Shown here: piece by piece, positions 29,436 through 31,683 of the stretch
Layout: every line of letters starts with the position of its first letter
Numbering within the stretch: position 1 is the stretch's first letter
From: Escherichia coli
GTDB lineage: Bacteria; Pseudomonadota; Gammaproteobacteria; Enterobacterales; Enterobacteriaceae
Reading direction: 5' to 3' (one strand)
Assembly (NCBI RefSeq): GCF_003334335.1
Contig: NZ_QOWQ01000013.1
Length of the DNA: 64,000 nt
Program-made: the position numbers and the translations under genes
The notes under the pieces: generated by a model
Told to the model about the DNA's origin: nothing
The model's input: only the letters and a program-made list of their open reading frames with translations
Database searches by the model: none

Positions 29436-30452
29436 ATGTCCACATTACGCCTGCTCATCTCTGACTCTTACGACCCGTGGTTTAACCTGGCGGTGGAGGA
29501 GTGTATTTTTCGCCAGATGCCCGCCACGCAGCGCGTTCTGTTTCTCTGGCGCAATGCCGACACGGTAGTGATTGGTCGCGCGCAGAACCCGTGGAAAGAG
29601 TGTAATACCCGGCGGATGGAAGAAGATAACGTCCGCCTGGCGCGGCGCAGTAGCGGTGGCGGCGCGGTGTTCCACGATCTCGGCAATACCTGTTTTACCT
29701 TTATGGCTGGCAAGCCGGAGTACGATAAAACCATCTCCACGTCGATTGTGCTCAATGCGCTGAACGCGCTTGGCGTCAGCGCCGAAGCGTCCGGACGTAA
29801 CGATCTGGTGGTGAAAACCGTCGAAGGCGACCGCAAAGTCTCAGGCTCGGCCTATCGCGAAACCAAAGATCGTGGCTTCCACCACGGCACTTTGCTGCTC
29901 AATGCCGACCTTAGCCGCCTGGCAAACTATCTCAATCCGGATAAAAAGAAACTGGCGGCGAAAGGCATTACGTCGGTACGTTCCCGCGTGACCAACCTCA
30001 CCGAGCTGTTGCCGGGGATCACCCATGAGCAGGTTTGCGAGGCCATAACCGAGGCCTTTTTCGCTCATTATGGCGAGCGTGTAGAAGCGGAAATCATCTC
30101 CCCGGACAAAACGCCAGACTTGCCGAACTTCGCCGAAACCTTTGCCCGCCAGAGTAGCTGGGAATGGAACTTCGGTCAGGCTCCGGCATTCTCGCATCTG
30201 CTGGATGAACGCTTTACCTGGGGCGGCGTGGAACTGCATTTCGACGTTGAAAAAGGCCATATCACCCGCGCCCAGGTGTTTACCGATAGCCTCAACCCCG
30301 CGCCGCTGGAAGCCCTCGCCGGACGACTGCAAGGCTGCCTGTACCGCGCAGATATGCTGCAACAAGAGTGCGAAGCGCTGTTGGTTGACTTCCCGGAACA
30401 GGAAAAAGAGCTACGGGAGTTGTCGACGTGGATAGCGGGGGCGGTGCGGTAA
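29436..30452 (+). CDS. lplA: lipoate-protein ligase A
   Basis: 338-aa [58 protein letters not shown]. Confidence 0.95.
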
Positions 30453-30483
30453 CTCGCTGATTAAAATATCCAAGGAAGGAAAT

Positions 30484-30747
30484 ATGATCGATCTGGAGAA
30501 CCAGGAACGGGAGATTATCAATTTAATGTTCAGCCAGGGTATATCCTGGCTAGCCGCCGTGCGTATCAGGCATAAATTATCGCTTGCTGAAGTAAGTAAA
30601 ATGTTAGGTATCTCGATTAATTCTCTAAAACAGATCGAAAAGACGGAACGGCTTAGCTCAAACATCAAAAGCAAAATGGCAGAAATTTATGGTTGTCCAT
30701 CAGAGTTGCTGATATGCCCTTCCTGGATGACGGCTGAACATAAATGA
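30484..30747 (+). CDS. hypothetical small XRE-family helix-turn-helix protein (87 aa)
   Basis: ORF with HTH-like segment KLSLAEVSKMLGISINSLKQIE; AT-rich; occupies the position where I recall yjjJ in K-12; no recognised named homolog. Confidence 0.45.
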   Translation: MIDLENQEREIINLMFSQGISWLAAVRIRHKLSLAEVSKMLGISINSLKQIEKTERLSSNIKSKMAEIYGCPSELLICPSWMTAEHK

Positions 30748-30845
30748 ATAGATTCGTGAATAGATACTTGAATGGATTTTATTTTCTATCCATATGAAAA
30801 ATAATAGTAAATCTATAAATCAGTTGCTATTGATGAATAGATACT

Positions 30846-30876
30846 AAAAAGCCGGAGCAGTCTCCCACTCCGGCTT
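30846..30876 (-). terminator. deo operon (deoD) rho-independent terminator
   Basis: minus-strand hairpin agccggag...ctccggct followed by TTTTT downstream of deoD stop. Confidence 0.6.
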
Positions 30877-30907
30877 CACACGACAATCGCCTTTCAGCGA
30901 AACACAA

Positions 30908-31627
30908 TTACTCTTTATCGCCCAGCAGAACGGATTCCAGTGCGATTTTGATCATGTCGTTGAAGGTGGTCTGACGCTCAGCGGCAGTGGTCTGCTCGTG
31001 AGTGCGGATGTGGTCAGACACGGTGCAGATGGTCAGGGCTTTCGCGCCAAATTCTGCAGCGACGCCGTAGATACCAGCCGCTTCCATTTCCACGCCGAGG
31101 ATGCCGTATTTTTCCATCACGTCGAACATTTCGCCGTCCGGAGAGTAGAACAGGTCAGCGGAGAACAGGTTACCCACGCGAGCATCAACGCCCAGTGCTT
31201 TAGCCGCGTCTACCGCGTTACGCACCATGTCAAAGTCAGCGATAGCGGCAAAGTCATGGTCTTTAAAACGGATGCGGTTAACTTTGGAATCGGTGCAGGC
31301 ACCCATACCGATAACGACGTCGCGTAGTTTTACGTGCGGCAGAACTGCGCCACAGGAACCCACGCGGATAATTTTCTTCACGCCGAAATCGGTGATCAGT
31401 TCTTTGGTGTAGATGGAGCAGGACGGGATACCCATACCGTGACCCATTACGGAAATTTTGCGGCCTTTGTAAGTACCGGTGAAGCCCAGCATACCGCGAA
31501 CGTTGTTCACTTCACGGGCATCTTCAAGGAAAGTTTCAGCAATATACTTCGCACGCAGCGGGTCGCCTGGCATCAAAACTACGTCAGCGAAATCGCCCAT
31601 TTCTGCATTAATGTGTGGGGTAGCCAT
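30908..31627 (-). CDS. deoD: purine nucleoside phosphorylase DeoD
   Basis: ORF 30908..31684 trimmed to [33 protein letters not shown] (239 aa). Confidence 0.95.
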
Positions 31628-31683
31628 TGTTTTATCCTTTTTGTGACATAACAAAGGCGGAGTCAACGCTCCGCCCAAATCCA

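Follow-up and report, generated by a model that had tools for sequence, protein, structure and literature searches.

We found that the slot between lplA and deoD, which in Escherichia coli K-12 holds the kinase-toxin gene hipH (yjjJ), is occupied by an unrelated gene for an 87-amino-acid helix-turn-helix (HTH) protein in a 64,000-nt stretch of an E. coli genome (assembly GCF_003334335.1, contig NZ_QOWQ01000013.1; hereafter the window, whose positions serve as coordinates throughout), while four 9-bp boxes found upstream of K-12 hipH are still in place. The account we favour, with a probability of roughly 0.6, is that hipH was swapped for a shortened antitoxin-type HTH gene that is now dispensable, and that the boxes are the relic of a HipH operator. 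The locus would then illustrate cleanly, in nature, the exchange of a chromosomal toxin gene for an orphan antitoxin-type DNA-binding gene that goes on to erode.

The gene order in this part of the window is serB (−), ytjB (+), lplA (+), spacer, deoD (−), deoB and deoA. Between lplA (lipoate-protein ligase A; 29436–30452, + strand) and deoD (purine nucleoside phosphorylase; 30908–31627, − strand, stop codon 30908–30910) lies a spacer of 455 bp (30453–30907) with a GC content of 38.9%, against 57.7% for lplA and 53% for deoD, as expected from the sequence-only reading, which had described 455 AT-rich bp between the two stop codons. The spacer contains a single sensible ORF (30484–30747), no other ORF and no room for a further gene, and Rfam returned no known RNA in 30300–31000. 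At its deoD end is the intrinsic terminator of deoD (30846–30878, − strand), a 13-bp G+C-rich hairpin followed by a U-tract (−28 kcal/mol, z −3.5).

K-12 yjjJ/hipH is a 1332-bp gene on the deoD strand, opposite to lplA; it begins 166 bp from deoD and runs up to lplA, the two stop codons being adjacent. The sequence-only reading had placed a K-12 gene of about 1.3 kb at this site and proposed that it had been replaced, and both points were borne out. When the window was aligned with K-12, homology broke off at base three of the lplA stop, a codon that reads TAG where hipH is present and TAA in the HTH haplotype, and returned exactly at the hipH ATG, which persists as a relic start codon on the − strand (30739–30741, CAT on the + strand). 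Between these two points, a haplotype-specific segment of 286 bp (30453–30738, + strand, 41.6% GC) occupies the place of the 1.33-kb hipH coding sequence, and it showed no similarity to hipH DNA or HipH protein in blastn and tblastn searches of both strands. A haplotype block reaching into lplA was rejected, since the stop codon was the sole position fixed between haplotypes. A further haplotype-specific stretch of 56 nt (30778–30833, − strand) separates the proximal from the distal boxes, in the place of the hipH promoter in other genera; it matches the K-12 stretch in length, with 43% identity (31% by chance), and its type is completely linked to the coding-sequence type in E. coli. The K-12 locus encodes a monocistronic HipA-family kinase toxin with an N-terminal HTH (PMC8262856). 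The window resembles it in the deoD–lplA slot, in the position convergent with lplA, in the deoD terminator, in the position of the start codon and in the presence of four ATCTATTCA boxes at identical offsets. It differs in lacking the 1332-bp kinase gene, with no remnant beyond the ATG, in carrying an unrelated 286 bp with an opposite-strand 87-aa gene, and in the unrelated sequence of the 56 nt between the boxes.

The HTH allele is the common state in E. coli. The full junction with the ORF was present in 4058 of 5426 complete E. coli genomes (94–100% identity), and hipH in 1348 of the 5426, always as a single copy; 401 of the 1348 hipH genomes were at least 99% identical to K-12, and the window was 100% identical at the locus to E. 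coli strain 214-4. Thus, it is K-12 that holds the minority state, and what had looked like an oddity relative to K-12 is the allele of about three quarters of strains. As a common accessory allele that RefSeq already annotates, it is unsurprising by itself. K-12 is unrepresentative here, however, with hipH in about a quarter of complete E. coli genomes, and this bears on claims that HipH has a role in E. coli persistence or biofilm generally.

Common though it is, the HTH junction is derived. hipH lies between deoD and lplA in Citrobacter, Salmonella, Cedecea and one further genus (L025) and between deoD and ytjB in Erwinia, while in Pantoea it adjoins ytjB downstream of a gene other than deoD. 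This synteny across Enterobacterales genera, from Erwinia to Salmonella, implies that hipH is ancestral in the slot and that the HTH allele arose later. An ancestral HTH allele had been a candidate on the strength of a syntenic ortholog in another genus (L009, discussed below), and was overturned by the hipH synteny in five further genera. The possibility, raised by the sequence-only reading against itself, that a comparison across E. coli would reveal this junction as the common ancestral state was therefore half right: the junction is common, but not ancestral. A third haplotype was seen in E. coli WB61 (NZ_CP020025.1; L037, 3001–3192), in which hipH is reduced to its first ~150–190 nt by a deletion that reaches the lplA 3′ end, the remnant being annotated as a partial 'transcriptional regulator'. 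This truncated gene shows an independent loss of hipH through simple deletion.

We found no mobile-element trace within the spacer, contrary to the suggestion that it might be the remnant of a mobile module. Genes for an integrase or transposase are absent, as are terminal repeats, and the repeats that are there are the boxes and one marginal 13-nt inverted repeat. The arms of this repeat (30523–30535 and 30732–30744) are complementary at 12 of 13 positions; one arm, TTAATGTTCAGCC, lies inside ORF codons 13–17, and its partner is the junction with the relic hipH ATG, exactly at the replacement boundary. About 0.1 such repeats are expected in the region by chance; it could be a scar of the rearrangement.

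The ORF (30484–30747, + strand; WP_000566141.1) is intact in the window and encodes an 87-aa XRE/Cro-C1-type HTH protein on the lplA strand, as originally described, and its RefSeq annotation is 'helix-turn-helix domain-containing protein'. Its ATG follows the lplA stop by 31 nt and has a strong Shine-Dalgarno sequence (AAGGAAGGA, 30473–30481, + strand). The interval between lplA and the ORF showed nothing resembling a terminator, from which we infer that the two are co-transcribed. The profile search proposed with the sequence-only reading was positive for both families named, HTH_3 (Pfam; i-E 6.4 × 10−6, residues 23–75) and HTH_19; HTH_25 and HTH_31 also matched, as did PADLOC HTH_VI (2.4 × 10−6), and the protein reached none of the curated family thresholds. 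An AlphaFold2 model (mean pLDDT 89) has predicted helices at residues 22–29, 34–41, 45–54 (the predicted recognition helix), 59–69 and 73–76, plus an extra N-terminal helix (residues 4–18). As modelled, the protein has the five-helix bundle and the helix 2–turn–helix 3 arrangement of the XRE/Cro-C1 HTH superfamily. Foldseek matched it with probability 1.0 to small XRE repressors, namely CylR2, the N-terminal domains of P22 c2 and SinR, and restriction-modification controller C proteins (rmsd 1.5–2.1 Å over 53–60 residues), and CylR2 was also the best PDB sequence match (E 0.005). Unlike these repressors, the 87-aa protein has the extra N-terminal helix.

The family to which this protein belongs is narrow. 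A HMMER search of 1.84 billion representative proteins returned Escherichia and a single 44%-identical 87-aa protein, encoded between lplA and deoD in a different genus (L009), and a scan of species-representative genomes added only two further loci, both in Escherichia. In the L009 genus LplA is 90% identical, and the lplA DNA is ~80% identical to E. coli, Citrobacter and Salmonella alike. Comparison of the ORF with the L009 ortholog gave a dN of 0.51 and a dS of about 2.2 (dN/dS about 0.23), and identities of 61, 68 and 38% at the three codon positions, which is a coding pattern; about 0.2–0.3% of shuffles stayed open over the ORF length. Within Escherichia there were 24 non-synonymous or stop variants and 16 synonymous ones, with non-synonymous variants below neutral expectation (P = 0.004–0.05), and pairwise dN/dS was 0.2–0.7 for the ORF against 0.03–0.07 for lplA and deoD.

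Disrupted alleles were frequent. The ORF was annotated as a pseudogene in 4 of 13 evenly sampled genomes, and an allele-specific search found a stop at Q50 (CAG to TAG at codon 50, in the recognition helix) in 1691 genomes versus 2036 with CAG, which is 42% of the HTH haplotype (1691/4058). Other lesions comprised a frameshift, a deletion of the HTH core in one genome and 3′ duplications in another. Given the Q50 stop, frameshift and internal-deletion alleles, the protein may be functionless in E. coli. By these patterns of substitution the ORF is a real gene, apparently long maintained by purifying selection and now apparently dispensable in much of E. coli. The ORF, including its Q50 stop allele, also occurs on a few 'plasmid' records of 0.4–4.9 Mb, which are probably mislabelled chromosomal replicons.

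Relatives of the 87-aa protein outside the locus point to toxin–antitoxin (TA) modules. In tblastn searches of phage and plasmid records, relatives were 30–37% identical over ORF residues 3–77, and full-length relatives were found only in Pasteurella phage Pmp14, Enterobacteria phage PPyecE_EH1910 and Leclercia plasmid pZ96-1_2. All three are HTH proteins of 118–124 aa encoded directly after a RelE/ParE-type toxin gene, that is, in toxin-first TA order, and the Leclercia toxin matches Pfam ParE_toxin at 6 × 10−8. Aligned with these relatives, the 87-aa ORF covers their C-terminal, DNA-binding half and lacks the 45–55 residues at their N-termini. It shares with such XRE antitoxins of RelE/ParE modules (HigBA-like order) the motifs (I/V)S(W/L)LAA(V/W)R, IEK and AE(I/L)Y(G/N)C and the XRE fold. 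It differs in the missing N-terminal part of ~45 aa, in having lplA rather than a toxin gene upstream, the lplA stop being 31 nt away, and in a C-terminal extension, the last ten residues being read into the box region up to the TGA of box 1. Homology to a toxin-first antitoxin is accordingly confined to the DNA-binding half, with neither a full-length antitoxin nor an adjacent toxin gene. The best reading of these alignments is that the ORF is an orphan, shortened antitoxin-type HTH gene. The earlier idea of a TA remnant survives in modified form: the ORF resembles the HTH half of an antitoxin and the boxes appear to be the remnant of the hipH toxin locus, but no toxin gene adjoins the ORF.

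Three other candidates for the origin of the ORF and its surroundings were rejected. HipB identity failed for want of either a family match or a kinase neighbour: PRK09726 (NCBIfam) gave no match at E up to 1, HipB chains were absent from the PDB sequence matches at E up to 1, and the neighbours are lplA and deoD, with no co-oriented HipA-family kinase gene. Derivation of the ORF as an inverted copy of the N-terminal HTH of hipH was dismissed after BLASTP, blastn and tblastn showed no similarity; from its sequence the HipH HTH appears to be winged-helix-like, as opposed to the XRE-type ORF product. Box-like operators were looked for in the related TA modules and none were found, their promoters carrying unrelated CTTATAT/ATATAAG-type palindromes.

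The boxes themselves are the second feature of the locus. Read on the + strand, TGAATAGAT occurs exactly at 30745, 30757 and 30834, the three positions given by the sequence-only reading, which missed a fourth copy with one mismatch (TGAATGGAT) at 30769. The copy at 30745 overlaps the TGA stop of the ORF and is followed by TTC, not TAC. Over the whole window, matches to the 9-mer with at most one mismatch numbered 12, against 11 expected by chance; a cluster of four within 98 bp, three of them exact and three in 12-bp register, is not a product of chance. On the other strand, in the hipH direction, the repeats read ATCTATTCA. The array consists of box 1 (30745–30753, its + strand TGA being the stop of the 87-aa ORF), box 2 (30757–30765), box 3 (30769–30777; the variant ATCCATTCA, which is also found in Salmonella and is polymorphic among E. 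coli strains) and a distal box (30834–30842) 65 bp upstream of box 3, all on the − strand. K-12 has three perfect tandem boxes and a distal one at offsets identical to those of the window, which keeps 35 of the 36 box nucleotides and the exact spacing of the intact array.

The same 3 + 1 layout is common to K-12 and seven hipH-bearing genera, with offsets conserved at about −36, −24, −12 and −101. The tandem boxes, spaced at 12 bp, end 2–4 nt before the hipH ATG (20 nt in Pantoea), and the distal box lies ~65 bp further upstream (78 bp in Pantoea). Each box is ATCTATTCA or a one-mismatch variant of it, the first proximal box being weaker in two genera, while the sequence between the boxes is unrelated across the hipH-bearing genera. 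In Pantoea the boxes keep this layout though deoD is not a neighbour, so they belong to hipH and are not ordinary deoD terminator context, an explanation that the sequence-only reading had listed as fatal to its own. We did not find this array, which extends from Erwinia to Escherichia, in the literature searched.

In most genera the 2–4 nt between the tandem boxes and the hipH ATG leave no room for a Shine-Dalgarno sequence, Pantoea alone having a 20-nt leader with GGGTGG before hipH, and hipH translation may be intrinsically poor or unusual. A consensus promoter scan found no convincing hipH promoter in the window, K-12 or Salmonella. The one match was in L025, a promoter-like TTGACA-18-TAAATT placed after the distal box and ahead of the proximal ones, which would put the transcription start within the tandem boxes or immediately upstream of them. 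In that genus HipH is 69% identical, and an extra 163-aa ORF with no Pfam match (L025, 1832–2323) lies between deoD and the hipH boxes.

As a pattern of sequence conservation, the array is a classic phylogenetic footprint of a putative operator. The N-terminal HTH of HipH 'may bind DNA' (PMC8262856); it is required for toxicity and nucleoid localisation, and it is at the promoter region that c-di-GMP controls hipH (both PMC11452175). No HipH operator is defined in either paper, and literature searches by motif string, protein accession and guessed locus tags returned nothing relevant. Judged purely by co-conservation with hipH, the boxes are most likely the HipH autoregulatory operator, although their binder could be another conserved factor. 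A comparable arrangement is known from hipBA, whose autoregulation involves four operators bound by HipB (summarised in PMC8262856). The likeness lies in four short repeated sites over ~100 bp of a Hip-kinase promoter and in an HTH encoded by the locus; the candidate operator here, however, is made of direct 9-bp repeats, not TATCC-N8-GGATA palindromes, and the HTH of HipH is fused to the kinase. The array is thereby a testable candidate both for the target of the HipH HTH and for the c-di-GMP response of the promoter.

Where hipH is absent, the boxes vary much like their surroundings. Across 20 sequences of the hipH-less haplotype (E. coli, E. marmotae and other Escherichia), 6 of 36 box columns were variable versus 12 of 52 in a neighbouring stretch, and three lineages had lost one box by a 12-bp deletion. 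All four boxes are perfect in alleles with the Q50 stop and in one whose HTH core is deleted, whereas several lineages with an intact ORF have boxes that are mutated or deleted. This independence of box integrity from ORF integrity speaks for a relic rather than for binding sites of the ORF's own product. In the L009 genus, the stop codon of the ortholog overlaps a degenerate box 1 and all other boxes are lost; the former hipH promoter region there (L009, 1125–1330) holds a terminator together with three REP-like palindromic elements, one of them GCCGGATAGCGGCTAACGCCTTATCCGGC.

The swap of hipH for an HTH gene, with relic boxes, can be set out as follows. All of hipH from its second codon through its stop has been replaced by 286 bp with the oppositely oriented 87-aa gene, leaving behind the hipH ATG, the four boxes and their spacing, with the ORF now terminating in the TGA of box 1. 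The N-terminal HTH of HipH would repress its own promoter through the boxes, which in the window would be a slowly decaying relic. The source of the 87-aa protein would be a toxin-first RelE/ParE–XRE module, of whose antitoxin it would retain the DNA-binding half; it would be left without its toxin partner and presumably be expressed from a transcript shared with ytjB and lplA. It would act as a small, probably dimeric DNA-binding repressor, of which the boxes are probably not the target. Purifying selection would have acted on the ORF over genus-level time and then given way to dispensability, as the many null alleles in E. coli suggest.

Several other explanations were weighed against this one. 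The ORF might be a non-functional, decaying fragment of an inserted antitoxin gene that is open in the window by chance, as the Q50 stop in 42% of the haplotype, the frameshift, deletion and duplication alleles, the dN/dS of up to 0.7 within Escherichia and the confinement of the family to one locus would allow. We consider this unlikely, because another genus has an open 87-codon ortholog with a dN/dS of about 0.23 and coding-pattern divergence, few shuffles (about 0.2–0.3%) stay open, synonymous variants are in excess within Escherichia, and the strong Shine-Dalgarno sequence is conserved. It is quite improbable, too, that the binder of the boxes is not HipH but another conserved host factor, for example one conveying c-di-GMP control, with the boxes functional in both haplotypes. 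Such a factor would fit the contrast in E. coli between boxes that hardly differ from one haplotype to the other and an intervening 56 nt of unrelated sequence, and c-di-GMP control at the hipH promoter region for which no binder has been identified (PMC11452175). Against it, boxes of the hipH-less haplotype are without detectable constraint and lose units by deletion, the other ORF-bearing genus has REP-like elements in place of the box region, and in Pantoea the boxes follow hipH rather than the neighbouring genes.

The sequence-only reading had offered, as one possibility, an orphan regulator with its own repeated binding sites. The 87-aa protein would then use the TGAATAGAT array as its operator and might silence an orphaned hipH promoter running antisense to the ORF and lplA. 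The repeats do adjoin the 87-aa gene, their 35 of 36 nucleotides are far above neutral expectation since the ORF lineages split, and no other hipH copy or HTH paralogue is at hand to account for their preservation. We nevertheless think this very improbable. The boxes predate the ORF: seven genera conserve them ahead of hipH, and K-12, where the ORF is missing, has the better-preserved copies; Q50 stop and HTH-core-deletion alleles coexist with four perfect boxes, and intact ORFs with damaged ones; the promoters of the antitoxin-type relatives carry CTTATAT/ATATAAG palindromes, unlike the boxes; and the ortholog in the other genus keeps a single degenerate box.

One observation sits awkwardly with a simple relic. 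Synonymous divergence is saturated across the split between the Escherichia and L009 lineages of the ORF, which have a common junction, yet 35 of 36 box nucleotides are intact in the window. If a single replacement had preceded the split, neutral boxes in Escherichia should have been erased, but they are near-perfect. A trans-acting explanation found no footing, as these genomes yielded neither another copy of hipH nor a separately encoded paralogue of its HTH. Refreshment of the boxes by recombination was rejected, the window-type intergenic region being absent from all hipH alleles in the 5426 genomes. Recombination may instead carry the HTH cassette from genus to genus, the lplA end and the functionally frozen boxes serving as arms, in which case the boxes of recipients were under hipH selection until recently. 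Alternatively, the boxes may still be in use by something. A combined account would make the boxes the target of the HipH N-terminal HTH, taken over in hipH-less strains by the 87-aa protein or another factor, and the cassette a spreading replacement allele. If that were true, the boxes could serve, for example, to shut an orphaned hipH promoter pointing antisense into the ORF and lplA, and their reuse, or spread by homologous recombination, would account for near-perfect boxes despite the genus-deep ORF split; we regard this combination as very doubtful.

Sequence variation was also seen on either side of the spacer. The last 50 nt of lplA (30401–30452) carry 5–8 strain differences, compared with 0–3 in most other 50-nt intervals; the variants of the lplA 3′ end include STWIAGAVR and SAWMAGAVR, and the differences are not fixed between haplotypes. 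The deoD–deoB spacer occurs in two lengths among E. coli strains, 79 versus 56 nt (31628–31683 in the window; L002 versus L013).
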